NCBI GenBank assembly: GCA_001784735.1
Contig: MFSB01000023.1
Coordinates: 1-49,636, forward strand
DNA length: 49,636 nucleotides
Reading direction: 5' to 3'
Origin: Candidatus Moranbacteria bacterium RIFCSPLOWO2_12_FULL_48_12
Lineage (GTDB): Bacteria; Patescibacteriota; Minisyncoccia; Moranbacterales; UBA1568
Shown here: piece after piece, positions 4,084 through 49,098 of the stretch
Position numbering within the stretch: the first letter of the stretch is position 1
Layout: every line of letters starts with the position of its first letter
Notes under the pieces: model-generated
Database searches by the model: none
The model's input: only the letters and a program-made list of their open reading frames with translations
What the model was told of the DNA's origin: nothing
Translations under genes and position numbers: made by a program

Positions 4084-5052
4084 ATGACTCCCCTCCAAGA
4101 ACACACAAAACGTTTCCTTGATCATCTCGAAGTCGAGATGAACCGGTCGCCCCGCACTATTGAAAGCTATGGTCGCACGCTTGAAGCCTTTTTTACTTGG
4201 GGCAACCTCCATGTCCCTGAAGATATTACGGCTGAAAAAGTCCGGGAGTACCGGATCTATCTCAACCGCAAGGGAAACGGGCGCGGCGGTACGCTCAAAA
4301 AGAATACCCAGGCTTACCAGGCGATCGTCCTGCGCGCCTTTCTCAAATACCTGGCCAAGCAAGATATTCTGACGCTGGCTGCCGAAAAGATCGAGATCGG
4401 AAAAACCCCCGACCGCCAAGTTGACTTTCTCGAACTCGCGGAGGTAGAGCAATTGATGGAGGCAGCCGTGGGCCAAAGCCTCAAGTCCCTCCGCGACAAA
4501 GCCATCCTGGAACTCTTGTTTTCTTCCGGACTGCGCGTTTCCGAACTGACCAGTCTCGACCGCTACCATCTCAACCTCGATAAGGAAGAATTCAGCGTCC
4601 GCGGCAAAGGAAGCAAGCTGCGCATCGTCTTTATCTCCCCCACCGCCAAAGTGGCCTTAAAAAACTATCTCGATAAACGCACCGATGTCGATCCCGCCCT
4701 CTTTGTCGCCTACGGAAAAAAAGGCCTCGTCAATGCCAAAAACGCCAAACGTGAAGATCAGCGGCCCGCCTCTGGCGAGGCTCGCCATACCGGGCGGCTC
4801 ACGCCAAGAAGCATCCAGCGGCTGGTGAAATACTATGCCAAAAAAGCCGGCATCGGCAAAGATGTCCATCCCCACACGCTCCGCCACAGTTTCGCCACCG
4901 ATCTCCTCGTCAATGGCGCCGATATCCGCTCAGTCCAGTCGATGCTCGGCCATGCCTCCATCACCACCACGCAGATCTATACCCACATCACCGACGAACG
5001 GCTCAAGGAAATTCACCGCTCCTTTCATGCGAAGAGGAAGCGGGGGAAATGA
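4084..5052 (+). CDS. tyrosine site-specific recombinase, XerC/XerD family
   Basis: C-terminal catalytic motifs HTLRHSFATDLLVNGADIRSVQSMLGHASITTTQIYTHI. N-terminal SAM-like core-binding domain (FLDHLEVEMNRSPRTIESYGRTL). Confidence 0.9.
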   Translation: MTPLQEHTKRFLDHLEVEMNRSPRTIESYGRTLEAFFTWGNLHVPEDITAEKVREYRIYLNRKGNGRGGTLKKNTQAYQAIVLRAFLKYLAKQDILTLAAEKIEIGKTPDRQVDFLELAEVEQLMEAAVGQSLKSLRDKAILELLFSSGLRVSELTSLDRYHLNLDKEEFSVRGKGSKLRIVFISPTAKVALKNYLDKRTDVDPALFVAYGKKGLVNAKNAKREDQRPASGEARHTGRLTPRSIQRLVKYYAKKAGIGKDVHPHTLRHSFATDLLVNGADIRSVQSMLGHASITTTQIYTHITDERLKEIHRSFHAKRKRGK

Positions 5053-7690: not shown

Positions 7691-9325
7691 ATGAAACGCT
7701 TCTTCCTCCGGGTTACCCAGTCGCTGGAAAATGCTCCGCTCACGCTCGCGACATTCGTGGCCAGTTTTTTCGCACTGATATTTACCCGCCTGCTCGTCGA
7801 GAACTCGCTCGGGCTGTTCGGTAACCATACCTTCTTTTATTTTTTCTTCGAATTCACGCACACCTTCCTTTTTTTCCTGTGCGCTTTTTTCCTTTTGGTC
7901 TTCCTCGTCCGCTGGGCCGGCAATGTCAATCTCGCCCAAGCATCGAACGTCCTCCTCTTCGGCTTTCTCGTCATCTTGACGCCCCCTATCATCGATACGC
8001 TCATTTTTCACGGAAGTGGTTTCTGGAGTTTCTATGAATTCGATGGTTTCCTCGGCCTCCTCAAGCGCTTCGTCACGCTGTTCGGTGATACGCCGAGTAT
8101 CGGCATCACCTACGGCGTGCGGGTCGAAGTCGTTATCGTAACGATCGCCCTCGGCCTCTACACTTTCATCAAATCACAGCGAATTAAAAAGGCGCTCATA
8201 GTTTCTTTTCTGGCCTACGCTATTCTTTTCATTCTCGGCACCTTCCCGTCCTGGCTGACGCTGTTCTTGCTCGTTTTCCAAAAAAGTTTCCTCGCCATCA
8301 ATCAGAACGACGTCGCCGCGCTTTTCCTCACACCGGAAAATATTTTCGCACGCCACCTGACAGACTTCCGCAGCGTGCTTAACGTGAAAATGAGCATCGT
8401 CTACGGAGCTTTCAGCATTTTGCTCGCTGCCGCGCTCCTCCGCCGCGAATATCCGCAATATTTCATCGCCCTGTGGAAAAATGCCCGCTTGCCGCAAGTC
8501 ATCTATCACGGCGGTCTCCTCTTTTTGGGTATGACACTCGCATTATTTTTCACCGAGGCACCTCTCACCTTTGATTTCTTCCATATCCTGAGCGCAGTCG
8601 TCTTGCTCTGTGCAGTCGAAAGCGCCTGGCTCGCCTCGGTCGTCGTCAATGATTGCTACGACACCAAGATCGATAGGGAAACCAATCCATCTCGCCCGCT
8701 CGTTCAAAACGCTCTCCCGCTGGAACTCTACAAGACTTTCGGGGCTCTCTTTTTCATCGCCTCGCTCATTCTCTCCGGCATCGTGAGTTTTTCGGCCCTG
8801 CTTCTCTTGCTCAGCTATCAGGCGCTGGCCTGGCTGTATTCCGCCCCGCCGCTCCGCCTCAAACGCTTCCCGCTTCTGGCAACGGTGTTTGCCGCTTTCG
8901 CCGGTCTTCTCGTTCTCATCACAGGTTTTCTCGCCGTTTCTCCCGAAAACGGCCTGCACGCCCTGCCGCTCCCGATTCTTTTCTTTCTTTTTGCCGCTTA
9001 TGCCTTGTGCCTGCCCATCAAAGACTTCAAAGATGTGCGCGGCGACAAGCTTGATCATGTCTATACTCTCCCGATCCTTCTCGGCACGGAAAAAGCCAAG
9101 CTGCTTATCGGCAGCCTTCTTCTCCTCCTCTATGTCCTCAGTCCGCTCATCTTGAGCGCCCGCTCGCTTTTCTTGCCCGCTCTCTTCTTCGGCAGTCTTT
9201 CCTTCTGGTCATTGCAACAAGGCACCGATGAAGAACGATCATTTTTCGCCTACCGCAAACTCCCCGGCATCATCCTCGCCATCACCGCCTTCTACGGACT
9301 GACAATTTTTTCTCTTCTTTTTTAA
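7691..9325 (+). CDS. UbiA-family prenyltransferase fused to an N-terminal polytopic membrane domain
   Basis: C-terminal half carries the two Asp-rich UbiA motifs NDCYDTKIDRETNPSRPL and KDFKDVRGDKLDHVYTLP. The N-terminal ~300 aa are multi-TM with no motif I recognise. Confidence 0.75.
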   Translation: MKRFFLRVTQSLENAPLTLATFVASFFALIFTRLLVENSLGLFGNHTFFYFFFEFTHTFLFFLCAFFLLVFLVRWAGNVNLAQASNVLLFGFLVILTPPIIDTLIFHGSGFWSFYEFDGFLGLLKRFVTLFGDTPSIGITYGVRVEVVIVTIALGLYTFIKSQRIKKALIVSFLAYAILFILGTFPSWLTLFLLVFQKSFLAINQNDVAALFLTPENIFARHLTDFRSVLNVKMSIVYGAFSILLAAALLRREYPQYFIALWKNARLPQVIYHGGLLFLGMTLALFFTEAPLTFDFFHILSAVVLLCAVESAWLASVVVNDCYDTKIDRETNPSRPLVQNALPLELYKTFGALFFIASLILSGIVSFSALLLLLSYQALAWLYSAPPLRLKRFPLLATVFAAFAGLLVLITGFLAVSPENGLHALPLPILFFLFAAYALCLPIKDFKDVRGDKLDHVYTLPILLGTEKAKLLIGSLLLLLYVLSPLILSARSLFLPALFFGSLSFWSLQQGTDEERSFFAYRKLPGIILAITAFYGLTIFSLLF

Positions 9326-12735: not shown

Positions 12736-14259
12736 TCATTCCTTAAACCGATACTGGAGTGCCTCCGCCAAGTGCGGCACCAAGATTGCAGGGGCGCCTG
12801 CCAAATCAGCAATCGTACGCGCTACTTTCAAAATACGCATATAAGCGCGAGCGGAAAGTTTCATGCTCGTCACAGCGCCACGCAAGATTTCCCGCGTTGC
12901 ATCATTCAGCGCGCAGAATTCTTTCACCATATGGCTGGTCATTTCCGCGTTCGTTCGGCAAGCTTTTTCCGCAAAACGTTTTTTCTGGATGGCCCGAGCG
13001 CTCTCTACCCGCGTCCTGATGGCAGTACTTTTTTCCGCGCCGGTCTCCTTGCTCTCCAATTTCTCGAATTTCACCCGCGGCACATCGATATGCAGATCGA
13101 TCCGATCGAGAATTGGTCCCGAGATTTTCTGCCGGTAACGCGCTACCTGGAATGGCGAGCAAGCACAGGCGCGCTGCGGATCTCCCGCGTGGCCGCATGG
13201 ACAAGGATTCATCGCCGCCACCAGCATGAAACGTGCCGGGAACTGCAGCGACCCTTTGGCGCGCGAGACAGTGATTTCGCCGTCTTCCAGCGGCTGGCGC
13301 AGATTTTCCAGAACAGAGCGAGAGAATTCCGCGAATTCGTCGAGAAAGAGCACGCCCCGATGCGCCAGACTGATTTCTCCCGGCTTCGGAAACGTTCCAC
13401 CGCCCACCAGCGATATCGCGCTCGCCGTATGGTGCGGAGCCCGAAACGGCCGCGTCATAATGAGCGCCTTATCTTTGGGCAACCGGCCGGCTATTGAAAA
13501 TATCTTGGTTATTTCCAAGCTTTCTTCCAGATCCAACTTGGGCAGGATAGTCGGCAATGTTTTCGCAAGAAGCGTTTTCCCCGATCCCGGCGGACCGATA
13601 AAGAGCGTATTGTGCCCGCCCGCCGCCGCGATTTCCAGCGCCCGCTTGGCATGTTCTTGACCCAACACATAGGACATATCCAGTCCTTCGTGTTCCTCTG
13701 TAGAAAATATCACTTCTTCCCGCACAAAAGGCTCTATCAACTTTTCGCCACAGAGGTGTTTGGCAACATCAAAAAGATTCTTCACGGGAATAATATCAAT
13801 CCCTTTGACAAGTGCCGCTTCATAAGCATTTTCCTCCGGAACATATATTTCCGTAAAACCTTTTTCCTTCGCATACAAAGTGATCGGCAAAACTCCCTGC
13901 ACCCGGCGTGCTTTACCATCGAGCGCTAATTCCCCGATGAATATTTTTTTTCGATGATCAAAAGAAAGCTGTTCCGTCGCCAAAAGGAATCCGAGCGCCA
14001 TCGGCAAATCATAAATCGGCGTATTCTTGGGCAGATCGGCCGGCGCCAAATTGACTGTCACGCGACCGCACTGATGAGGCGGCTTGAAACCGCTGTTTTT
14101 GAGCGCCGCGCTGACCCGGTCACGCGACTCTTTGATCGCCGTATCCGGCAACCCGACCAACGTAAAATTATGTAGCCCGGCCGGCAAGACATCCACCTCT
14201 ACTTCCACAGAAACGCTTTCCAATCCGAGAGTCGTCGCGGAATACACTTTGGCTGACAT
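12736..14259 (-). CDS. comM: YifB/ComM family Mg-chelatase-like ATPase
   Basis: N-terminal Lon-protease-like domain. Walker A LFIGPPGSGKTLLAK, GVLFLDEFAEF, AAMNPCPCG, and C-terminal SARAYMRILKVARTIADL. Confidence 0.95.
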   Translation of the reverse strand: MSAKVYSATTLGLESVSVEVEVDVLPAGLHNFTLVGLPDTAIKESRDRVSAALKNSGFKPPHQCGRVTVNLAPADLPKNTPIYDLPMALGFLLATEQLSFDHRKKIFIGELALDGKARRVQGVLPITLYAKEKGFTEIYVPEENAYEAALVKGIDIIPVKNLFDVAKHLCGEKLIEPFVREEVIFSTEEHEGLDMSYVLGQEHAKRALEIAAAGGHNTLFIGPPGSGKTLLAKTLPTILPKLDLEESLEITKIFSIAGRLPKDKALIMTRPFRAPHHTASAISLVGGGTFPKPGEISLAHRGVLFLDEFAEFSRSVLENLRQPLEDGEITVSRAKGSLQFPARFMLVAAMNPCPCGHAGDPQRACACSPFQVARYRQKISGPILDRIDLHIDVPRVKFEKLESKETGAEKSTAIRTRVESARAIQKKRFAEKACRTNAEMTSHMVKEFCALNDATREILRGAVTSMKLSARAYMRILKVARTIADLAGAPAILVPHLAEALQYRFKE

Positions 14260-19311: not shown

Positions 19312-19414
19312 CCCCGTTAGAAGTCTGACTTGGGATATAGAATAAAAACAAGCGGCTAAAGAAATTTAAAACGGTGGAACTTTCATAGTTGATTTTGACA
19401 GACTTCTAACGGGG
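19312..19414. repeat. CCCCGTTA-family hairpin element, copy C
   Basis: Perfect 16-bp arms CCCCGTTAGAAGTCTG / CAGACTTCTAACGGGG enclose 71 nt. It lies between the pnp stop and the start of the next minus-strand gene. Confidence 0.85.
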
Positions 19415-21553: not shown

Positions 21554-21899
21554 ATGTGCGTACCTGTTTTCAGACAAGAAAAAGAAGAACAAAAGATTCA
21601 AAGCACAAAAGTCGGAAAGTGAAGCCTTAGCGGAACCCCGTACAGTCCCGTTAAAATGGGGCTGATGCGTGGGTAAAAGCTTTACTCTTTGATCTTTGAG
21701 ATTTGAACTCTTTTCAAGTCTTCCCTGTCCAAAAAAAAGGTTGTTAATGAACCCAGCACCTTCACCTCAGAGTGTTAAGCTCTGCGAGAAGGGTTTATAT
21801 TTCCGTTCATCCACGCGACGAAATCGCAAAAGAATCCTGAAAGGTGCTGGGTGAATATATTTACTCCCGCACTCTACCGAAAATACTGCCTTTTGTCAA

Positions 21900-21998
21900 C
21901 CCCGTTAGAGAACGCTACGCCCTTGGCGCGACTTCAGTCGCTTGCCCCGTTAGAATAGATATTCTAACGGGGCTTGCAGCGACTTTTCTCTAACGGGG
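21900..21998 (+). repeat. CCCCGTTA-family hairpin element, copy B (a copy-A homologue carrying a nested insertion)
   Basis: Arms are CCCCGTTAGAGAA / TTCTCTAACGGGG, 16 bp if the CAA/TTG extension is counted. The interior is collinear with copy A apart from the extra 28-bp hairpin at 21945-21972. Confidence 0.85.
21945..21972. mobile_element. 28-bp mini-hairpin CCCCGTTAGAATA-GA-TATTCTAACGGGG nested in copy B, flanked by CTTG/CTTG
   Basis: Copy A reads AGTCGCTTGCAGCGACT. Copy B reads AGTCGCTTG[CCCCGTTAGAATAGATATTCTAACGGGGCTTG]CAGCGACT. This is a clean insertion with a 4-bp direct duplication. Confidence 0.7.
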
Positions 21999-22075
21999 TT
22001 GCCAAAAGGCCGATCCCTATGCTAGCTTCCAATCAATGTCCGTTAATAACTGAATAACCAAGAAAGGGCTCTACC

Positions 22076-24251: not shown

Positions 24252-24444
24252 AAATGTCTTCGAGTGAAACGAGAAGCTACATTTATGAGCGTCCCGCCTC
24301 AATTCATTATTAAAAATTTATACCGACTCAAACGAGAGCCGCTAGGCGTTTCCGAGCCACTCATTCCAGTCTTTCACTAAACAAAATCGGAATTGGGGCG
24401 GGATAGCTAAATAACCATAATATCTTTTAAAAAAGCAAAAGGGC

Positions 24445-31715: not shown

Positions 31716-31779
31716 TCGAAACTAGCTTCAAAGATACAAACTTCTCTTTGCCACGTCGCTCGCGAGCGACGGTGACTTG

Positions 31780-31890
31780 CCCCAGTTACATGTTTTAGAA
31801 ACATTGTAACTCTATGGAAAGACGTAAGACGTAGTCGCCTATCGGCTTTCACTTACCATTAACAAAGGTATTCCTAAACATGTAACGGGG
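31780..31890 (+). repeat. CCCCGTTA-family hairpin element, copy F (with conserved apical core)
   Basis: Arms CCCCAGTTACATGTTT / AAACATGTAACGGGG with a one-nt bulge. Central core GTAAGACGTAGTCGCCTATCGGCTTT (31824-31849). Flanked by CTTG on both sides. Confidence 0.85.
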
Positions 31891-31891
31891 C

Positions 31892-31920
31892 TTGCCAAAA
31901 ATGAAAAGTCCGGCTATACT
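31892..31920 (+). promoter_or_regulatory. sigma70-type promoter candidate for rpsA
   Basis: TTGCCA, 17-nt spacer, TATACT. The -35 box starts 2 nt after the last G of hairpin F. Confidence 0.55.
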
Positions 31921-36856: not shown

Positions 36857-37786
36857 ATGCTGGAAAAATTGCAGCTCCACACGCTCATCCTGTCGGCCTG
36901 GCGCGCCTCGCTCTCCAAACGGCTGCCGTGGATTTTCGGCTCCCTCCTGGCTATCGCGGGGGTCATCGAAAGCCGGATTGCTGCTAGGCTTCCCGATACC
37001 GCCTCTTTCCCGGAATTCTTGAATATCATTTCAGAAAAGAACGGGGAGGCGCTGTTTTCCTTTCTCTTGATTTTTATTTTCCTCTTCAGCCTTGAGATTT
37101 TCGGAAAAAGCAATCTCATCGTCTCTTTGTCATTCGTGACTGGAAAAACCAACCTTCCCAACTACCCGGACAAGCTCGCCGCCATGGGAAAAAATTTCTT
37201 CCGGATGCTCCTCCTCGAATGTCTCGCGCTGTTTTTTCTTCTGGCGGTCACCTTGATATTCTCTCTTCCCTTTCTCATCGCCTCTTCGAAAAACCCGGAA
37301 GCGATGGATACGCTCCTCGGTCTCGGTCTGCTCGCTTTCCTCCCCATCACTATCGTTGTCTTTTTCATCTGGCAGTTCGCGCTCTTCTACCTCCTCCTCT
37401 CTCCCCTCCGGATCCGTGGATCCATTGAGGCTGGCAGCTCGCTTTTCTCTCGTTTTATTTTCCCCAGCCTCCTGTTCGGCCTTTTTTCTTTCGCGCTGAC
37501 AGCTCTCTTTACTTTTTGCACAAATATCATTATCCTAGGCATTACTGCTCTTTCAGAAAGGGCTGGTTTGCCGCTTGGAACGACCGCTGCTACTCTCGTG
37601 GTCGGCTTAGTATTTTTCACCTGGTTCTTCATTTTCCAGCAAGCGCTCTGGCTGGCCTTCTTCAGATCCATCGCCGGCCCGCCTAGACTCGGCGAGGCTG
37701 GCCAAGACAAAACGGAAGAACTCATCAAAGAAAAAGAGCCTGTGCTGGACAACCAGACTCTCCCCGAAATCCCTCCGGCCCAGTAA
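36857..37786 (+). CDS. hypothetical polytopic membrane protein
   Basis: 309-aa ORF with six or more hydrophobic helices, directly after ftsH. No motif. Confidence 0.55.
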   Translation: MLEKLQLHTLILSAWRASLSKRLPWIFGSLLAIAGVIESRIAARLPDTASFPEFLNIISEKNGEALFSFLLIFIFLFSLEIFGKSNLIVSLSFVTGKTNLPNYPDKLAAMGKNFFRMLLLECLALFFLLAVTLIFSLPFLIASSKNPEAMDTLLGLGLLAFLPITIVVFFIWQFALFYLLLSPLRIRGSIEAGSSLFSRFIFPSLLFGLFSFALTALFTFCTNIIILGITALSERAGLPLGTTAATLVVGLVFFTWFFIFQQALWLAFFRSIAGPPRLGEAGQDKTEELIKEKEPVLDNQTLPEIPPAQ

Positions 37787-37804
37787 CATTCTTATCTCTA
37801 TTTT

Positions 37805-37878
37805 GGACAATTAGCTCAGTTGGTTAGAGCGTCACATTGACATTGTGAAGGTCACTGGTTCGAATCCAGTATTGTCCA
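37805..37878 (+). tRNA. tRNA-Val (anticodon GAC)
   Basis: Cloverleaf folded by hand: GGACAAT TA GCTC AGTTGGTTA GAGC G TCACA TTGACAT TGTGA AGGTC ACTGG TTCGAAT CCAGT ATTGTCC A. CCA is not encoded. Confidence 0.9.
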
Positions 37879-37880
37879 CA

Positions 37881-37956
37881 AGGTGTAACGGGGTGAAGTT
37901 AGAGCGCTACATTGACATTGTAGAGGTCTCCTGTTCGAATCAGGATACACCCACCA
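37881..37956 (+). pseudogene. tRNA-Val(GAC)-like copy with disrupted D arm
   Basis: AGGTGTA AC GGGG TGAAGTTA GAGC G CTACA TTGACAT TGTAG AGGTC TCCTG TTCGAAT CAGGA TACACCC A CCA. Length and the anticodon, T and acceptor arms are normal. The 5' D-stem strand is replaced by ACGGGG, which is the hairpin-family terminus, so the D stem cannot pair. Confidence 0.6.
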
Positions 37957-38008
37957 TTTTATTCAAAAGCAATTAGCTCAGGCTTGCCCGCCTAGACGTC
38001 GAGGCTGG

Positions 38009-38119
38009 CCCCGTCACCTATTTTAGTAAAAATGTATGCTAGCTGTGGACGAAAGCCGCTAGGCGACTACGTCTTACAATTTGCATAAACCACAATCTCT
38101 TCCTGAATAGGTGACGGGG
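38009..38119 (-). repeat. CCCCGTTA-family hairpin element, copy H (core in inverted orientation)
   Basis: Perfect 14-bp arms CCCCGTCACCTATT / AATAGGTGACGGGG. The core AAAGCCGCTAGGCGACTACGTCTTAC (38052-38077) is the reverse complement of the F and G core. It is preceded by a tRNA 5' fragment CAATTAGCTCAG (37971-37982). Confidence 0.85.
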
Positions 38120-38293
38120 TGAAGTTAGAGCGCTACATTGACATTGTAGAGGTCACTGGCCTGCCCCGTTGTATTTCATTCGATAACCAGGAAAAGGTAC
38201 GACGTAAGGCGAAGCCGCAACAATGGTAGCCACTCAAATAAAACGATTCCAACATTAGAAATACAGTGGGGTTCGAATCTGGACAGACCCACA
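38109..38293 (+). pseudogene. decayed tRNA-Val-like copy interrupted in the T arm by hairpin copy I
   Basis: AGGTGACGGGGTGAAGTTAGAGCGCTACATTGACATTGTAGAGGTCACTGG, then CCTG plus element I, then TTCGAATCTGGACAGACCCA. The acceptor and T stems no longer pair. Confidence 0.6.
38164..38271 (+). repeat. CCCCGTTA-family hairpin element, copy I
   Basis: Arms CCCCGTTGTATTTC / GAAATACAGTGGGG, 14 bp. The two non-Watson-Crick positions are G:T and T:G. It sits exactly between ...GGTCACTGG and TTCGAAT of a tRNA-like T arm. Confidence 0.8.
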
Positions 38294-38337
38294 ACCCAAT
38301 TAAGGCATTCAAGTGAGGGATGAAGGTCACTGGCTTG

Positions 38338-38375
38338 TCCCGTAGCATCCCGCCTTAGCGGGATTGGTACCGGGA
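38338..38375 (+). repeat. short hairpin (TCCCGTA...TACCGGGA) splitting a third AAGGTCACTGG / TTCGAAT tRNA remnant
   Basis: GAAGGTCACTGG-CTTG-TCCCGTAGCATCCCGCCTTAGCGGGATTGGTACCGGGA-TTCGAAT. The inner stem is ATCCCGC/GCGGGAT. Confidence 0.55.
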
Positions 38376-38432
38376 TTCGAATTGCCTCCTTCGTCTTAGA
38401 CTTCGGGCGGCCAAACAGTATCATCCACCAAC

Positions 38433-38479
38433 AAAAAAACTCGCTTCACCTCTCTTGAGAGAAACTGGGCGAGTTTTTT
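38433..38479. terminator. bidirectional rho-independent terminator candidate
   Basis: AAAAAACTCGC ... GCGAGTTTTTT stem flanked by an A-run and a T-run, 17 nt beyond the stop of 38496..39554. Confidence 0.7.
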
Positions 38480-38495
38480 ATCCTCCATTTTTTCG

Positions 38496-39554
38496 CTAAA
38501 TTCCTCCTGTCGTAGTATTGGATAACGTGGGCGTACTCGGATTGACCTGGATGCTCCGCTGTAGAACGCTCTGCGTAAATGGAGCCGCCGGTCCGAGGAT
38601 GCCGGTCGCTTGCTTGAGCACGGAACCAACCTGGCTATTCACGCCACCGATCTGTCTTTGAAAATTTGCCTGCACTTGCCCTATGCCAGTCGTAACCAGT
38701 CCAGAAACCACCTTATTGGCCATAGCCGCTATAACACCAGAAGCAAGCTCTCCCGGATTGGATGCGGCTGCAATAATCTGATTGGGGAGGTTTTGGATAT
38801 TGGTTGTGGCCGCCTGGATAGCTCCGGCCGGCGCTATCACCATCCCATTTTGTTTAGCCGGCAAAAATCCCGACGAAGTGGCCTCGATTTCCGCCGCCCG
38901 CTGCTCCATTGCCAGCTTGTTCTGATAGGCCTCTTCCGCTTTCAAAGAATAGCCATACGGGTTGTTGTATGGATTAGAAAAGAAGGCGTTAAAGGCTCGG
39001 AAGTCCCCTTCTGCAAACATCGCCTGCGGACTGGCGGTATATTCCTCCAGGTTCAGCGTGCCTATCGTCCCTTTTCCGACGATCGCTTGTTTACCGACAG
39101 ACTGCAAGTACGAAGCGTAGCTCCCGCCGATTCCCCCCATGTCACCGATACCGATATAGTTCGCTTGAGCCCCCTTGCCGCGCGTCGTCAAGGTAAAAAA
39201 ACTATTCATATACAGATCGGTCCGCTGCTGCGGCCTCCGATACAAGAAATCGTCAAAGCTGGTGATGAAGCGTGCCTGCCCCCCCGCTCCCCCGCCGATG
39301 AGCTGCCCCACCTGATTGTTGAGCATCTGCACGGCCGCCATTTTGAGCGACCCGAGCAAAGCACCTTCGATCTGACGCGCAATTTGTTCCATCGTCTGCT
39401 TCATAATAGCTGCCGCCATATTCGCCCCCCATGCATCAGCGTGTGCGGTTTGAGGCATCATAAAAAACATCCCGCTAACAAAAATCATCAATAGAGAAAC
39501 TGCCGCCTTCCTTGCTGATGTTCTCGAATTTTTTCTGTTTTTAGATAAAATCAT
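38496..39554 (-). CDS. hypothetical secreted protein
   Basis: 352-aa ORF. N-terminal signal or anchor (AAVSLLMIFVSGMFFMMPQTAHA), then a Gly/Ala/Gln-rich mature region. No recognisable motif. Confidence 0.6.
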   Translation of the reverse strand: MILSKNRKNSRTSARKAAVSLLMIFVSGMFFMMPQTAHADAWGANMAAAIMKQTMEQIARQIEGALLGSLKMAAVQMLNNQVGQLIGGGAGGQARFITSFDDFLYRRPQQRTDLYMNSFFTLTTRGKGAQANYIGIGDMGGIGGSYASYLQSVGKQAIVGKGTIGTLNLEEYTASPQAMFAEGDFRAFNAFFSNPYNNPYGYSLKAEEAYQNKLAMEQRAAEIEATSSGFLPAKQNGMVIAPAGAIQAATTNIQNLPNQIIAAASNPGELASGVIAAMANKVVSGLVTTGIGQVQANFQRQIGGVNSQVGSVLKQATGILGPAAPFTQSVLQRSIQVNPSTPTLSNTTTGGI

Positions 39555-40797: not shown

Positions 40798-42747
40798 TTA
40801 CAATATATTTATACTTTTGTCAATACTCTTACAAAACTGCTTCTTGGAAGTAGCCAAGCCTAAAATAATCCACAACAAAAGCTGCCCCTGCTGTATATCC
40901 CAAAAGTAATGATCAAAAAGCATAATTAATATGATGACAACCAATAAGGATCGAAAAAGATAAGGCACAATAACTTTCTTGTCACTTTCTGAATACTCCA
41001 TACGCTTGGTGGCTAAAGAATGTTCCACGTGGAACATTTTTATATAACTAGACAAAGAATTGTTCCACGTGGAACATTTTTGCATTGGTAGATGGGGAAT
41101 TGTTCCACGTGGAACATTTTTACTGTTTCTCAAAAAGACAAAGGCTAAAAACCACAGAAACAAACCAATCCCGACTGAACCGGTTTCGCTGAAGATAAGC
41201 AAAAATACATTATGGATCGGCTGTAATTGCCATAATAATAACTTTTCAGTGAAAAAGTGCTGCATATCAAAGACGTATTGTCCTATACCTAAGCCTTCAA
41301 ATAAATATCCCTTAAATAAGCCTCTAATCGAATTTATATAAAATAACCGCTCTACAAATGGCTGAATGATAAAAAGCTTTAAATTAACAAAGAACACTAT
41401 CATCATCACCATAACGATTCCCCATACGATAAGTAAATGTTCCACGTGGAACATTTTGCTGAACACTCTCATTACCGATTTATAACAAATGTTCCACGTG
41501 GAACATTCAGATACATGATCGGTTGGCAAACTTTGAAATGTTCCACGTGGAACATTTTGCGCGTTACTATCCAAATGTTCCACGTGGAACATTTTGCGTA
41601 TTCCAGAAACAAGCACTATAAGCCCAATAATAAAGGCTATAATGGCAGATTTAGAAAAGCTGAAGGAAAGTGCCAACAGCTGTATAAAAATAAGCATCCT
41701 GTAGAGCCAAACACTCATAAAATGTTCCACGTGGAACATTTTAGCATTTGTAGATGGGCGGTTGTTCCACGTGGAACATTTTGTTAACAACCATGCTATA
41801 GAACTATATATTGTTCCACGTGGAACATTTGGTATATTATCGGATTGTTCCACGTGGAACATTTTTGACTTAAATATCAGCGGATAAACCATTGTTATGA
41901 GTAAAGATAGTGCCAAAAAGCCACCCAGTATGTTCGGATGAGGGAAAAATCCGTAGGATCTGATAAAAACATCACCGTTTATGACTATCTTGGCTATTCC
42001 CGGATCGTGTGCATTGAAAATACTCTCTCCCAAAATGGTTAATCCCAATGATTTTTGGCTTATAAACTGTAAAATTGCCACTATAGACTGAAAAAACCCT
42101 GAAATAATGGCTATAGTCAAGGTTATTTGTAGGATGTTCCACGTGGAACATTGTGAAAAATAACCCAGTAACTTACTTATAAATGTTCCACGTGGAACAT
42201 TTTGCACATTATTATTCAAATGTTCCACGTGGAACATTTTGGAATTGACAGATGGAAGATTGTTCCACGTGGAACATTCTTCTACTGATGCCCGCAATGT
42301 TCCACGTGGAACATTGCAAATAAGAATATAGAGATATAATAAAAACCCTTCAATAAGCCTAAAAAACGCTACCATAGCTAATGGAACACTTTCTGACCAG
42401 AAAATAGATAGCCCGGACCAAAAAATGAGGAGTGCCGGGATAAAAATAGGGAGAAGCAAATGTTCCACGTGGAACATCTTTCTCCAGTAAGATATTGACA
42501 GTATTGTAGTTTTGTTTTCTAATATATATACTCCCAAGGTCGCAACCAATAAAATATCGGAAAGATACAAAGATACGTCCAGATACTCATTGAATGAACC
42601 ATCCGGCGAAAAAACAGCGAGAACCTTGCGGATGGAGAAGGGGAAGGAAAGAAGGAAAAAGACAAATAAAATAGTATGCAAACGCACAGAAGCAAAAGCC
42701 TGCTTCAGATTGTGAGAGGATGCGTGGAATGACATAAATCGCTTCAT
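40798..42747 (-). CDS. O-antigen ligase / Wzy_C-family membrane protein carrying in-frame palindromic repeat modules
   Basis: 649-aa ORF stays open through an AT-rich region. Many TM helices. Wzy_C-like motifs FFPHPNILGGFLALSLLI and QPIHNVFLLIFSETGSVGIGLFLWFLAF. The peptides MFHVEH (x7), NVPRGT (x5) and CSTWN (x5) are the three frames of one DNA palindrome. Confidence 0.75.
   Translation of the reverse strand: MKRFMSFHASSHNLKQAFASVRLHTILFVFFLLSFPFSIRKVLAVFSPDGSFNEYLDVSLYLSDILLVATLGVYILENKTTILSISYWRKMFHVEHLLLPIFIPALLIFWSGLSIFWSESVPLAMVAFFRLIEGFLLYLYILICNVPRGTLRASVEECSTWNNLPSVNSKMFHVEHLNNNVQNVPRGTFISKLLGYFSQCSTWNILQITLTIAIISGFFQSIVAILQFISQKSLGLTILGESIFNAHDPGIAKIVINGDVFIRSYGFFPHPNILGGFLALSLLITMVYPLIFKSKMFHVEQSDNIPNVPRGTIYSSIAWLLTKCSTWNNRPSTNAKMFHVEHFMSVWLYRMLIFIQLLALSFSFSKSAIIAFIIGLIVLVSGIRKMFHVEHLDSNAQNVPRGTFQSLPTDHVSECSTWNICYKSVMRVFSKMFHVEHLLIVWGIVMVMMIVFFVNLKLFIIQPFVERLFYINSIRGLFKGYLFEGLGIGQYVFDMQHFFTEKLLLWQLQPIHNVFLLIFSETGSVGIGLFLWFLAFVFLRNSKNVPRGTIPHLPMQKCSTWNNSLSSYIKMFHVEHSLATKRMEYSESDKKVIVPYLFRSLLVVIILIMLFDHYFWDIQQGQLLLWIILGLATSKKQFCKSIDKSINIL
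41019..41120. repeat. palindrome array A (3 copies of TGTTCCACGTGGAACA)
   Basis: 16-mers start at 41021, 41061 and 41101, a 40-bp period. Confidence 0.95.
41436..41595. repeat. palindrome array B (4 copies)
   Basis: 16-mers start at 41438, 41490, 41539 and 41576. Spacings are 52, 49 and 37. Confidence 0.95.
41721..41865. repeat. palindrome array C (4 copies)
   Basis: 16-mers start at 41723, 41763, 41812 and 41846. Spacings are 40, 49 and 34. Confidence 0.95.
42133..42315. repeat. palindrome array D (5 copies)
   Basis: 16-mers start at 42135, 42184, 42221, 42261 and 42298. Spacings are 49, 37, 40 and 37. Confidence 0.95.
42459..42478. repeat. solitary copy of the palindrome
   Basis: 16-mer at 42461-42476. 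Confidence 0.95.
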
Positions 42748-42987: not shown

Positions 42988-43086
42988 CCCCGTTAGAGAA
43001 AAACATCGATCGTTTTAAGCATTCCTGAAGGTTTTCTTGAAGAGCCGCTTCTGAACCATGAATGATGTCTGTTTTTCTCTGACGGG
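42988..43086 (+). repeat. CCCCGTTA-family hairpin element, copy D
   Basis: Arms CCCCGTTAGAGAAAAACA / TGTTTTTCTCTGACGGG, 17 bp with one T:G. It starts at the nucleotide after the tRNA-Ala discriminator base. Confidence 0.8.
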
Positions 43087-43160: not shown

Positions 43161-43240
43161 CCCCGCCACTGTAGTTCAATGGATTAGAGCTATCCCGTCC
43201 GTCCTAAGGGAGAGATGGAGGGGTTCCTGCCCACCAGCGC
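43161..43240 (+). pseudogene. degenerate tandem duplicate of tRNA-Arg
   Basis: GTAGTTCAATGGATTAGAGCTATCCCGTCCGTCCTAAGGGAGAGATGGAGGGGTTCCTGCCCACC is collinear with the intact gene. It has an extra GTCC in the anticodon loop, and the T loop and acceptor do not pair. Confidence 0.6.
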
Positions 43241-43244
43241 GTAT

Positions 43245-43317
43245 GCCTCTATAGCTCAATGGATTAGAGCTATCCCGTCCTAAGGGAGAGATGGGGGTTC
43301 GATTCCCTCTAGGGGCA
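43245..43317 (+). tRNA. tRNA-Arg (anticodon CCT)
   Basis: GCCTCTA TA GCTC AATGGATTA GAGC T ATCCC GTCCTAA GGGAG AGAT GGGGG TTCGATT CCCTC TAGGGGC A. Confidence 0.85.
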
Positions 43318-43686: not shown

Positions 43687-43849
43687 CTTGTTAGAGGGAT
43701 TATTCAGGGTTATCCACACGTTATGCCCAGTGGCACAACTTAAAAAGTGAAGACTTTAATAAGCTCCAATAAAATAGCGAAGTTATAAAAATAGGGCAGC
43801 ATGATTTTGAAAATGTAGCTAATAATTGTTTTAAGTTGTTCCACTGGGT

Positions 43850-47720: not shown

Positions 47721-47775
47721 TTTTATCAAACAGAACATCGTCAGTCTATCGAAGTTGGAGGAGGGCGTCAATTCA

Positions 47776-47884
47776 CCCCGTTAGATATTCAAGACAGTCT
47801 CTACTATGTAAAATACTGTAAGGCGAAGCCGCCTTACGGCTCTGATAAATTTTTACTACACACGCTCACTAAATATCTCACGGG
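47776..47884. repeat. CCCCGTTA-family hairpin element, copy E
   Basis: Arms CCCCGTTAGATATT / AATATCTCACGGG with one mismatch. Inner hairpin GTAAGGCG-AAGC-CGCCTTAC. Confidence 0.7.
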
Positions 47885-47930
47885 ACAAGAAAACACCCCG
47901 CTTGAGTAGCAGGGTGTTTTCTGTTTTGTT

Positions 47931-48625: not shown

Positions 48626-48654
48626 ATCCTAGCACAAAAACAGAAACAAGTCAA
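48626..48654 (-). promoter_or_regulatory. sigma70-type promoter candidate for the 3D-domain gene
   Basis: The minus strand reads TTGACT (48654-48649), a 17-nt spacer, then TAGGAT (48631-48626). The -35 box abuts the end of hairpin G. Confidence 0.5.
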
Positions 48655-48766
48655 CCCCAGTTACATATTCAAGGTAAGTATTATGGCTTTTTAGAGCCAT
48701 AAGACGAAGTCGCCTATCGGCTTTTAACCTCAAGAGAAGTACATCTTTGCCAAATATGTAACGAGG
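48655..48766 (-). repeat. CCCCGTTA-family hairpin element, copy G (with conserved apical core)
   Basis: Arms CCCCAGTTACATATT / AATATGTAACGAGG. Core TAAGACGAAGTCGCCTATCGGCTTT (about 48700-48724). Flanked by TCAA, or GTCAA, on both sides. Confidence 0.8.
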
Positions 48767-49098
48767 TCAAGGCCAAAGTACCACTATTTGGCTTATTTAA
48801 GGCAAATTATACCAATATTATTGGCATATTTCTGCTTAAGAGCGGCTTTTCTTGGGTTTATGCGCCCAAAAGCCCTGTGAGTTTCCCCCGCACCCCTTCG
48901 CTCCACGTGAAAAGATAGCTTCGTATGCCCATACCGCTCGCTACCGCGACATGGGTCTTCAAATTGTCGAAACAACAGGTATTTATCCCAGAGCGAGCCA
49001 TGTACCCTGAAACGAGATTAAGCTCGTTTCATATCCGCGGCCAGCCTCGCCAAGTCTAGGCGGGCAAGCCGTGGGGGAAAGCCTGTGGCTATTAGAAC

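Follow-up and report, generated by a model that had tools for sequence, protein, structure and literature searches.

The genome of a groundwater bacterium of the Moranbacteria (CPR) carries, within the 49,636-nt stretch of DNA analysed here (the window), a tRNA-Val locus in which only one gene, a tRNA-Val(GAC), is intact. The sequence that follows, from 37880 to 38430, consists of pieces of at least three older tRNA-Val copies, broken by three hairpin elements, termed H, I and J, and by two mini-palindromes of approximately 20 nt (Table 1). All elements listed in a first-pass annotation of the locus were found on re-checking, except that a 12-nt tRNA fragment had to be shifted leftward by a single base, to 37970-37981; the locus, previously closed at 38390, continues to 38430, taking in a mini-palindrome and the 3' end of the outermost A-type copy.

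Table 1. Features of the tRNA-Val locus, with positions counted from the first nucleotide of the window.
Position	Strand	Feature	Basis
37805-37879	+	Intact tRNA-Val(GAC), type A (GGACAAT...ATTGTCC), functional gene	ARAGORN; Rfam 75.4 bits; relatives
37880-37893	+	Orphan 3' arm of bracketing hairpin stem (AAGGTGTAACGGGG), 5' partner missing upstream	Relatives
37894-37956	+	TGAAG and 3' three-quarters (D loop to CCA) of a B'-type tRNA-Val	Rfam 32.4 bits; L100 orthologue
37957-37981	+	Spacer TTTTATTCAAAAG and 12-nt 5' fragment CAATTAGCTCAG of an A-type copy	Exact repeat of 37808-37819
37982-38124	+	Hairpin element H in D-loop position	Arms, fold, family alignment, covariance model, orthologues
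37989-38010	+	22-nt mini-palindrome (CGCCTAGACGTCGAGGCTGGCC) inserted in left end of H	Missing from L100 H orthologue
38125-38159	+	tRNA body TTAGAGCG..GGTC ACTGG (D-stem 3' strand to T-stem 5' strand)	Repeat comparison
38160-38271	+	Hairpin I, between T-stem strand ACTGG and T loop TTCGAAT	Arms; terminus CCTGCCCCGT matches family terminus
38272-38292	+	T loop, T-stem 3' strand and acceptor 3' strand of a B-type copy (TTCGAATCTGGACAGACCCAC)	100% match, L017/L020/L022
38302-38320	+	Orphan 3' strand of anticodon-site bracketing stem (AAGGCATTCAAGTGAGGGA)	Stem paired in relatives; covariation
38321-38333	+	Start of 3' half of outer A-type copy (TGAAGGTCACTGG)	Identical to 37846-37858 of intact gene
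38334-38375	+	Hairpin J, closed short hairpin at the ACTGG/TTCGAAT position	Fold z-score -3.1
38376-38430	+	T loop TTCGAAT, mini-palindrome (38384-38411) and ACAGTATCATCCACCA (38415-38430), the outermost A-type 3' end with CCA	Sequence reading
38434-38479	.	Terminator-like inverted repeat closing the locus, A run before, T run after	Arms 11/11

The intact type-A gene forms a cloverleaf that exceeds the curated threshold of Rfam RF00005, is called by ARAGORN, and is 100% identical to the intact gene of five relatives (L024, L027, L028, L033 and L047). The next copy (copy 2, 37881-37956) had been described as full-length. Set beside L024, L057 and L100, its 5' end proves to be a hairpin arm and not an acceptor strand; copy 2 combines an orphan arm with the 3' three-quarters of a gene. 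The ACGGGG in this copy had been recognised as the family terminus, but not as the 3' arm of a stem that brackets a tRNA; its counterparts are paired around an intact tRNA in L024 (CCCCGTTACTTATTC/GAATAAGTAACGGGG), L057 (CCTCCACACCTTTT/AAAAGGTGTGGGGG) and L094. Copy 2 encodes CCA and scores above the Rfam gathering score of 29; its D stem is unformed and skipped in the Rfam alignment, pair 1:72 is mismatched, and ARAGORN calls it only at a relaxed threshold (-ps90). Its B' orthologue is intact in L100, the nearest relative, and its junction ACGGGGTGAAGTTA recurs in L024, L093, L094 and L100. The end of the upstream ORF (CCCAGTAACA, 37778-37787), a weak match to the orphan arm (TGTAACGGGG), was considered as a remnant of the 5' arm and dropped, the ORF terminus being conserved in L100.

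Beyond copy 2, the spacer and the 12-nt fragment have an orthologue in L100 (TTTTTTCTAAAAGCAATTAGCTCAG) and lead into H, which has the layout GCTTGCC...CCCCGT-stem ... core GAAAGCCGCTAGGCGACTACGTCTTAC ... stem-ACGGGG-TGAAG with conserved ends. Its arms (38009-38022 and 38106-38119) are complementary at 14 of 14 positions and its RNA fold has a z-score of -4.8; L100 has an orthologue at this junction, and L093 has the same stem with the core inverted. Further copies of the mini-palindrome family lie at 37680-37703, 49036-49070, 1167-1188 and 997-1020, and one mini-palindrome sits in frame inside a protein gene.

The tRNA body that follows H is a mosaic of a B-type anticodon arm and an A-type T stem. 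Because 38111-38154 is 98% identical to 37885-37928 and the orthologous stretch of L100 is A-type, gene conversion is indicated; the 39-nt block reported at 37890-37928 and 38116-38154 occurs exactly twice, with none expected in 100 shuffles. Hairpin I (arms 38164-38177 and 38258-38271) and hairpin J both lie, as first annotated, exactly between ACTGG and TTCGAAT. The two junctions show 84% similarity in a 25-nt stretch that includes the conserved terminus of the family, and this twofold interruption may reflect two separate insertions or one insertion followed by duplication. The remnant after hairpin I corresponds to positions 54-75 of the B-type tRNA-Val of the three matching relatives. The counterpart of the orphan anticodon-site strand pairs with a 5' strand around an intact tRNA in L018 (ATCCCTCACTTGAATACCTT), L035 and L032, the junction GGGA/TGAAGGTC is also present in L012, L018, L032 and L035, and ATCATCC, at the outermost 3' end, recurs in L012, where it forms the acceptor 3' strand of the intact A-type gene. 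The terminator-like repeat has a 24-nt loop and was hence overlooked by a simple terminator scan; a similar element follows the relic in L100. Searches of Rfam with the window at the gathering threshold, and with 37700-38500 at E<=10, returned tRNA matches only and no known RNA family for H, I or J.

In relatives among the Moranbacteria and other CPR bacteria, a complete tRNA gene is found within an inverted repeat of 13-20 bp, which itself lies inside an older copy of the same tRNA, at the D-, anticodon- or T-loop position. Such nests are intact in L094, L068, L024, L057, L032, L035 and L018. L094 has three tRNA-Val(CAC) genes, each in the D loop of the next, with arms of 12-13 bp, and the outer two are each recognised as tRNAs after excision of the insert; L068 has a tRNA-Ile(TAT) in the T loop of an otherwise complete outer copy. 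An intact tRNA-Val occupies the anticodon loop of the outer copy in L032, L035, L018, L043 and L057. In L024 and L057, a B or B' copy is interrupted in its D loop by a stem of the CCCCGT..ACGGGG type that encloses the intact gene, and the right junction is the same as that of copy 2 in the window. Upon removal of the insert, the outer copies of L094, L068, L024 and L057 rejoin to a complete tRNA according to ARAGORN. Perfect leader/trailer complementarity of at least 10 nt was found for 14 of the 212 tRNAs in the fetched loci, compared with a mean of about 6 nt in shuffled controls. By sequence, the window is best read as a collapsed version of the nests that are intact in these relatives. The first-pass reading holds as regards the targeting of tRNA loops and the decay of the copies, and it missed the nesting, that is, a new tRNA within a hairpin in the loop of an old gene. 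Relic fragments and hairpins of a like kind also occur at tRNA-Arg and tRNA-Ala loci. In L098, an antitoxin/Doc pair after the conserved junction was considered as cargo and dropped, as a short hairpin closes ahead of the genes and a right end could not be located.

The bracketing stems vary in sequence and keep their pairing. In the anticodon-site stems (n=6), 98.7% of positions are paired and 10 of 13 pairs are changed on both sides, a value reached in none of 500 shuffles, the test being partly circular in that the stems were picked by complementarity. The ends of the insertions are conserved, as CCCCGT...ACGGGG(TGAAG) or YCCCNCAC...GTGNGGGR(TGAA), and the inner arms are variable and self-complementary. 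Arms that vary freely yet remain complementary, with G.U pairs on one strand only, are more in keeping with selection on an RNA or single-stranded structure than with terminal inverted repeats of the ordinary kind. The insertions are restricted in position. In approximately 190 kb of relatives, all nine of the small GC hairpins lie in tRNA-like loops, which bears out the earlier suggestion that hairpin elements target tRNA loops, and every junction that was read places the insertion in a loop, at a stem/loop boundary or in the 3' tail, with none seen within a tRNA stem, these positions having been assigned by eye on fragments found through tRNA similarity. An identical 32-mer is found in L012 and L043, and hairpins directly border tRNA genes on their 3' side, namely tRNA-Ala both in the window and in L032, and tRNA-Ile in L091.

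Comparison of close genomes reveals insertions present in one and absent from another. L025 has an intact B' gene, and in its sister L024, which is 96.8% identical at the nucleotide level upstream, the D-loop TTGG is replaced by GCTTG-stem-tRNA A-stem-TGAAG, so that TTGG is lost and not duplicated; the dead copy of L024 bears two further hairpins, and the whole nest is absent from L025. L100, with about 88% nucleotide identity to the window, has an intact B' gene at the place of the intact A gene and orphan arm of the window, and it lacks the mini-palindromes that the window has at 37680-37703 and 37989-38010. An ancestral multi-copy locus with sorting of alleles could mimic such replacement. 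In strain L010, a tRNA-Arg is a chimera of a relic and an intact copy, indicating that the copies are still recombining.

The elements resemble MITEs and palindromic repeats in being short, non-coding, multi-copy and bounded by inverted repeats, and the H type forms a family with a common core. H-type elements are confined to three species in the 1.15 Mb searched, a narrow distribution for which alone the covariance model of the family, recovering almost only its training copies, was used. Hairpins of the CCCCGT..ACGGGG kind number at least 9 in 50 kb of this genome and also lie in ordinary intergenic DNA. Direct repeats of 4-5 nt (GCAAG, GTCAA, GCTTG, TCCA) surround about half of the dispersed copies, and none is found at the tRNA-loop insertions. 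No transposase, recombinase or reverse transcriptase linked to the elements was found in the window and scattered loci, the sole recombinase of the window being a Xer-like tyrosine recombinase 33 kb away.

Somewhat better than even odds, in our judgement, favour reading the locus as one working tRNA-Val(GAC) gene followed by the collapsed remnants of a nested series of gene replacements. With similar, slightly more than even confidence, we attribute the series to loop-targeting mobile hairpin elements, some of which would carry a replacement tRNA gene, the disabled copies having afterwards decayed and recombined. Across the Moranbacteria clade and other CPR bacteria, hairpin-forming insertions occupy positions where the tRNA is single-stranded, in the D, anticodon and T loops and the 3' tail, and the arms of some enclose a complete gene for the same tRNA. 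A hit on the sole gene for an essential tRNA would be survivable only with a replacement in the insert, and this would explain why nests are always of same in same. The disabled outer copy would then decay, gather hairpins without cargo (H, I, J and the mini-palindromes) and recombine with its neighbours, and the outcome in the window would be the intact type-A gene, the orphan arm joined to the 3' part of a B' gene, and the fragments with the orphan anticodon-site strand. Whereas the anatomy of the locus, the nests of relatives, stem covariation, confinement to loops and between-species differences in insertion are observed, we infer that the insertions move in trans as mobile DNA and that those with a rescuing cargo are filtered out by selection for retention.

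The locus might instead have arisen by simple tandem duplication of tRNA-Val, with the copies decaying at random and a generic intergenic repeat (MITE- or REP-like) entering neutral DNA by chance, which we regard as unlikely. The window itself does look like a series of head-to-tail fragments, the CCCCGT family is also intergenic, with nine copies in 50 kb, several of them with short flanking direct repeats, and the copies recombine among themselves. However, the 5' fragment in relatives ends where the 3' fragment resumes, with complementary arms between, a coincidence that duplication with independent deletions would not produce repeatedly; the intact nested genes with such coincident breakpoints argue against it, as do the placement of small GC hairpins in tRNA-like loops in nine of nine cases and the lack of any insertion seen within a stem.

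tRNA genes are classic integration sites, and the first-pass annotation had considered remnants of att-site duplication by an integrative element; on this view the fragments would be attachment (att) sites left after integrase-mediated integration and loss of islands or prophages at tRNA-Val. In several relatives, 3' fragments from the anticodon stem onward do lie downstream of intact genes, the identity between L024 and L025 falls exactly at the tRNA, and there is an archaeal precedent of a tRNA disrupted by an integrating element (PMC3293823). We nevertheless consider this origin quite improbable: 5' fragments are also found upstream of intact genes, the flanks are inverted and not direct repeats, the inner gene is complete but identical to the outer one in neither half, and the inserts are of only 100-250 nt. 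No integrase lies within 30 kb of the locus, and the flanking gene order is constant over about 60 genomes. Two scans of viral contigs gave nothing relevant: the A-type gene had no match, and the junction ACGGGGTGAAGTTAGAGC had three, all without a tRNA and in unrelated contexts. An integron attC site was rejected as well, since it needs RYYYAAC ... GTTRRRY and the sequence here is GTTAGA ... TCTAAC on both strands.

Similarly improbable is the proposal that the interrupted copies, or the array as a whole, are functional RNA, whether the hairpins serve as intervening sequences or leader/trailer stems that are excised from a shared precursor to give split or multi-piece tRNAs, or as processing scaffolds of the inner tRNA, or, in the case of H-type elements, as small RNAs. 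It draws on the covariation of stems, the one-strand G.U pairs and the 27-nt core of H, which is conserved between species while the 5' loop part diverges; on the array itself, which is probably co-transcribed because it lies between the intact gene and the terminator-like repeat; and on the outer copies of L094 and L068, which keep every stem, and copy 2, which retains acceptor, anticodon and T arms and an encoded CCA. Against it, acceptor partners are missing in the window, inserts at the anticodon site take out the 3' strand of the anticodon stem, and H is inverted relative to the tRNA in L093. The outer copies are redundant, since every nest includes an intact gene that shares their anticodon, and decay varies by lineage, with TCCGATT instead of the T loop in the outermost copy of L094 and a broken anticodon stem in L024.

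The earlier view that the interrupted copies are decayed rather than intron-containing has stood up, as the intron mode of ARAGORN (introns of 0-300 nt) found nothing new. Neither copy 3 freed of H and I nor the last remnant qualifies as a tRNA; the reconstituted sequence is uncalled even at a relaxed threshold, AAGCAAT and CAGACCC do not pair, and the rejoining of exons to a complete tRNA does not hold in the window. An archaeal intron of the bulge-helix-bulge type was rejected, as inspection of the junctions of L094, L032, L035, L018 and the window revealed no 3-nt/4-bp/3-nt motif; the D-loop inserts give a 4x5 internal loop beside a long helix, and the anticodon inserts a one-sided 6-nt bulge. 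No splicing endonuclease or RNA ligase was seen among the ORFs scanned in 50 kb of the genome. A group I intron was likewise ruled out, since 37700-38500 has no Rfam match to one even at E<=10 and the inserts are of 42-143 nt, compared with a criterion of more than 200 nt.

Finally, that the locus is a misassembly of tandem tRNA genes, as the first-pass annotation had allowed, is scarcely conceivable: nothing except its repetitiveness speaks for it, whereas the 721 nt 3' of the upstream ORF are identical in 10 contigs of independent metagenome assemblies, the longest repeats at the locus are at most 44 nt and thus below the length of sequencing reads, and analogous structures occur in many unrelated MAG projects. 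The identity of the 721 nt was dropped as a sign of selective constraint, on which it is uninformative because the ten strains are 99.3-99.99% identical to the window overall.

The tRNA-Val locus and its counterparts in relatives resemble several known systems in part. As at the att sites of integrative elements, tRNA fragments amass beside an intact gene and the identity of sister genomes breaks at the locus; unlike at such sites, there are no direct repeats, integrase or island, 5' fragments are present, and the inner gene lies within inverted repeats. REP/BIME, Correia elements and Rickettsia palindromic elements are bacterial palindromic repeats and MITEs, the last of these occurring in frame in protein genes. 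The elements described here are likewise short, non-coding, hairpin-forming and multi-copy, with a lineage-specific expansion, some copies with short direct repeats and one mini-palindrome in frame in a protein gene, but they differ in the strong restriction to tRNA loops in relatives, in their variable yet complementary arms, in the tRNA gene that some copies carry, and in that no associated transposase, such as RAYT, was found. In bacterial rRNA genes, intervening sequences form hairpins inserted at the tips of helices and are removed by RNase III without re-ligation; they are not known for tRNAs. Both are stem-loops at exposed sites of a structured RNA gene, and the end helix could be cut from the precursor; unlike in rRNA, most carriers here are without essential parts, which makes a working fragmented tRNA unlikely in the window.

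Loop-disrupted tRNA genes have been considered a peculiarity of archaea and eukaryotes; in the bacteria described here, there are loop-restricted insertions, half-genes continued by complementary strands, and tRNA genes nested up to three deep. No published account of nested or hairpin-split tRNA genes in CPR bacteria was found in an incomplete coverage of the literature, which amounts to absence of evidence only. tRNA finders overlook or miscount such loci, and the relics, together with in-frame mini-palindromes in proteins, affect the annotation of CPR genomes. Archaeal tRNA genes may contain multiple non-canonical introns in the D, anticodon and T loops, or may be split or tri-split (PMC3293823; PMC10714607), and transposition of introns in Thermoproteales and disruption of a tRNA by an integrating element in Caldiarchaeum have been described (PMC3293823; PMC10714607). 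The CPR loci share with these the insertions at tRNA loops, the mutual pairing of insert ends, the half-fragments that adjoin complementary sequences, a 5' fragment beside a replacement gene, and evidence of spread between tRNA genes. They differ in their bacterial host, in the lack of any bulge-helix-bulge seen, in that the interrupted copies appear dead and not spliced, and in that the insert can itself be an entire tRNA gene matching the interrupted one in identity, with nesting to a depth of three. Mobile cassettes, if that is what they are, would represent a new route of turnover for an essential gene, by a selfish element that supplies its own replacement. We advance as a tentative proposal, held at rather less than even confidence, that hairpin-bracketed tRNA cassettes of CPR bacteria insert into loops of the same tRNA, by a structure-guided route via single-stranded DNA or RNA, and replace the resident gene, the outer shells attracting hairpins without cargo; mobile cassettes of this kind would be a bacterial counterpart of, and possibly a model for the origin of, the intron-bearing and split tRNA genes of archaea, and would offer a testable route to them.

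In the window, ARAGORN calls a single tRNA-Val, the intact tRNA-Val(GAC) gene at 37805-37879 (Rfam, 75.4 bits), and Rfam places a second tRNA match at 37881-37953, which reaches 32.4 bits (gathering score, 29) in an alignment that passes over the D stem; no family other than tRNA is matched over the tRNA-Val region. The repeats and hairpins recorded downstream in the first-pass annotation are all confirmed in the sequence, including the 39-mer, counted exactly twice where no copies are expected by chance, and the 12-mer CAATTAGCTCAG, which exists as described but lies at 37970-37981. The locus does not end where that annotation closed it, since its pieces extend past hairpin J to a terminator-like repeat (table). 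The single 3' strand left of an anticodon-site stem precedes what remains of an outer A-type copy (an older, disabled tRNA): its 3' half, interrupted by J and by a mini-palindrome (a GC-rich insert of about 20 nt), and then its 3' end. The intron mode of ARAGORN gives no additional tRNA at the locus, and copy 3, the relic interrupted by hairpins H and I, still receives no ARAGORN call once both are excised.

Features of the tRNA-Val locus and related hairpins in the window
Feature	Position	Remark
Copy 2	37881-37956	
Hairpin H, arms	38009-38022/38106-38119	
Hairpin I, arms	38164-38177/38258-38271	
Anticodon-site stem, 3' strand, AAGGCATTCAAGTGAGGGA	38302-38320	partner strand kept in L018, lost in window
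Hairpin J	38334-38375	
T loop, then second mini-palindrome	38384-38411 (mini-palindrome)	downstream of J; related to 37680-37703 copy
ACAGTATCATCCACCA	38415-38430	3' end of A-type copy
Terminator-like inverted repeat	38434-38479	after ACAGTATCATCCACCA
Mini-palindrome	997-1020	related to 37680-37703 copy
Mini-palindrome	1167-1188	related to 37680-37703 copy
Mini-palindrome	37989-38010	related to 37680-37703 copy
Mini-palindrome	49036-49070	related to 37680-37703 copy
Long hairpin, CCCCGT..ACGGGG kind	19312-19414	
Long hairpin, same kind	21888-22010	nested pair
Long hairpin, same kind	24285-24409	
Long hairpin, same kind	31773-31899	
Long hairpin, same kind	43726-43848	
Long hairpin, same kind	47768-47894	
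Long hairpin, same kind	48648-48775	

The protein of the upstream ORF is present on contigs of many independent metagenome assemblies, mainly from groundwater, and ten such contigs match the window without a difference over the 721 nt downstream of the ORF, which excludes the mis-assembly of tandem tRNA genes that had been considered earlier. This identity is uninformative on constraint, because the overall identity of the ten strains to the window is 99.3-99.99%. An FtsH scan of species-representative genomes assigns the window to Candidatus Moranbacteria/Moraniibacteriota (CPR/Patescibacteria). The order ftsH, hypothetical, tRNA-Val(GAC), ..., tRNA-Ala, tRNA-Arg is kept, and at this locus the relatives each have a single intact tRNA-Val(GAC), of type A, B or B', which differ mainly in the acceptor and T stems. 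Many relatives also carry tRNA-Val fragments, and these are arranged as nests, in which an intact gene flanked by an inverted repeat sits at a loop position of an older copy.

In three relatives (L032, L035, and L018), the 5' half of an A-type copy stops at ..CATTGA. The B-type gene that comes next is intact and lies between a strand of 15-20 nt and its exact reverse complement, after which the A-type 3' half follows, TGAAGGTC... In L024 and L057, the intact gene, enclosed by stem arms of the CCCCGT..ACGGGG type, occupies the D loop of a copy of type B or B', and the right junction, ..ACGGGG followed by TGAAGTTAGAGC, is common to these nests and to copy 2 of the window. Scanning metagenomes for the left D-loop junction, TAGCTCAGGYTTGCCCCGT, recovered ten loci, including L094, with three tRNA-Val(CAC) genes nested via their D loops and every stem of the outer two paired, L092, with nested tRNA-Ile, L093, where a different tRNA-Val locus contains an H-type hairpin that shares the stem of window H and has the core inverted, and L100, the nearest relative of the window at about 88% nucleotide identity. 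A further locus, L068, has a complete outer copy with tRNA-Ile(TAT) in its T loop. After in silico removal of the inserts, ARAGORN recognises the outer copies of L094, L068, L024, and L057 as tRNAs. The sister loci L025 and L024 differ in that the B' gene is intact in the former, whereas in the latter a bracketed A gene stands in place of the D-loop TTGG and two further hairpins lie in the dead copy. Their identity, 96.8% over 11.7 kb upstream and 74-88% downstream, breaks exactly at the tRNA-Val D-loop junction (L024 12735), and this break may mark the edge of a recombination tract that has its anchor in the tRNA gene.

Perfect leader/trailer complementarity of at least 10 nt is found in 14 of 212 tRNAs from the fetched loci, the shuffled controls averaging about 6 nt. 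Bracketing stems start with YCCCNCAC.. or CCCCGT.. and finish with ..GTGNGGGR or ..ACGGGG, often with TGAA next. The six stems at the anticodon site are 98.7% paired and have both-sided changes in 10 of 13 pairs, a result equaled by none of 500 shuffles, with the caveat that these stems were selected for complementarity. In about 190 kb of the relatives, nine small GC hairpins (CCCGCCCG..CGGGCGGG and CCTGCC..GGCAGG) were counted, each of them within a loop (D, anticodon, variable, or T) of tRNA-like sequence. Two distantly related species share a 32-nt hairpin, CCCGCCCGAACGTACCGTTCGGTACGGGCGGG, without a difference; in L012 (13029-13060) it fills the D loop of one dead tRNA-Val copy, and in L043 (13029-13060 and about 12864-12896) both the D and T loops of one. 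The H-type family, found in three species only (1.15 Mb searched), is built on a 17-bp stem that shows compensatory changes and has G.U pairs confined to one strand, and its core, GAAAGCCGNTAGGCGACTNCGTCTTAC, is conserved. Both the free variation of arms that still pair and the restriction of G.U pairs to one strand suggest that selection acts on a single-stranded form. A transposition intermediate is one candidate for this form, and a transcript, for example a helix that serves in processing the inner tRNA, is another.

Comparison with L100 clarifies the window. In L100, the ORF is followed by an intact B' gene, TTTTTTCTAAAAG, CAATTAGCTCAG, H, and TGAAGTTAGAGCG with an A-type body that has two small hairpins in its T loop. 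The window has a different spacer, an intact A gene, and AAGGTGTAACGGGGTGAAG in place of the B' 5' part and the spacer preceding it. Copy 2, annotated at first as a full-length tRNA copy, is thus an orphan 3' stem arm joined to the B' 3' three-quarters. The stretch after H is, by its 98% identity over 44 nt, converted to copy-2 sequence. Relative to L100, the window has also gained a 22-nt mini-palindrome at the left end of H and, in frame in the upstream ORF, a 24-nt copy of the same family.

The simplest account covering all the evidence has four steps. Hairpin-forming insertions would be targeted to single-stranded positions of tRNA genes; insertions into the sole gene of an essential tRNA would be kept only if they carried a replacement; the disabled shells would degenerate and accumulate more hairpins; and they would recombine among themselves. 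Shell recombination is occurring within the species, as shown by strain L010, in which a relic and the intact tRNA-Arg have recombined into a single chimeric gene (9079-9152) that ARAGORN still calls. The type-A gene is 100% identical between the window and five species with FtsH identities of 77-84% to the window, and relatives closer than these carry B' or another A variant, a distribution that hints at transfer but could also reflect the sorting of ancestral copies. It is also possible that outer copies function in the well-preserved L094 and L068 nests; in the window this is unlikely, the outer copies there lacking acceptor partners and strands of the anticodon stem.

The tRNA-Arg and tRNA-Ala loci of the window and relatives follow the same pattern, which is therefore not peculiar to tRNA-Val. 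Right at the tRNA-Ala 3' end begins a roughly 100-nt hairpin (CCCCGTTAGA..TCTAACGGGG type; 42989-43086), with TCCAC repeated on either side; hairpins likewise stand at the tRNA-Ala 3' end in L032 (9443-9539), with a different self-complementary stem, and directly abut the tRNA-Ile 3' end in L091 (about 2547-2628). Immediately upstream of the intact tRNA-Arg lies a decayed tRNA-Arg(CCT) 5' copy (43161-43317) broken in the T loop between GGGGTTC and CTGCC.., and L024 and L025 have one or two tRNA-Arg 5' fragments, each with a D-loop hairpin.

Long CCCCGT..ACGGGG hairpins also occur in ordinary intergenic DNA of the window at about one per 5 kb, four of them with the H core; almost none are seen at the relatives' loci, so this family has expanded in the window lineage. 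The 24-nt GC-rich mini-palindrome CGCCTAGACTCGGCGAGGCTGGCC (37680-37703), in frame within ORF 36857-37786 and with GGCC on both sides, is missing from the L100 orthologue, and it looks like a tiny mobile hairpin able to enter protein genes. Separately, a 16-nt palindrome, TGTTCCACGTGGAACA, forms a dense array of more than 15 copies, many as 22-nt perfect units, at 41000-42320 within ORF 40798-42747 (-); this ORF is without a Pfam match, and its length differs among strains (645 aa, 649 aa, or split). No transposase was found in the window, and the sole recombinase seen there is a 322-aa Xer-like tyrosine recombinase (4084-5052; Phage_integrase and N-terminal SAM-like domain), most likely XerC/D, which adjoins a UvrD-type helicase.

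Tested as a group I intron, a bulge-helix-bulge intron, and an attC site, the window locus fails each time, and it likewise fails as the integrase attachment-site remnant suggested at first. No description of nested or hairpin-split tRNAs of this kind was found in the searchable literature. Bacterial palindromic repeats and MITEs, as well as rRNA intervening sequences, are near parallels. The nearest are the disrupted tRNA genes of archaea and a tRNA-Thr gene proposed to have been split by an integrating element (PMC3293823; PMC10714607).
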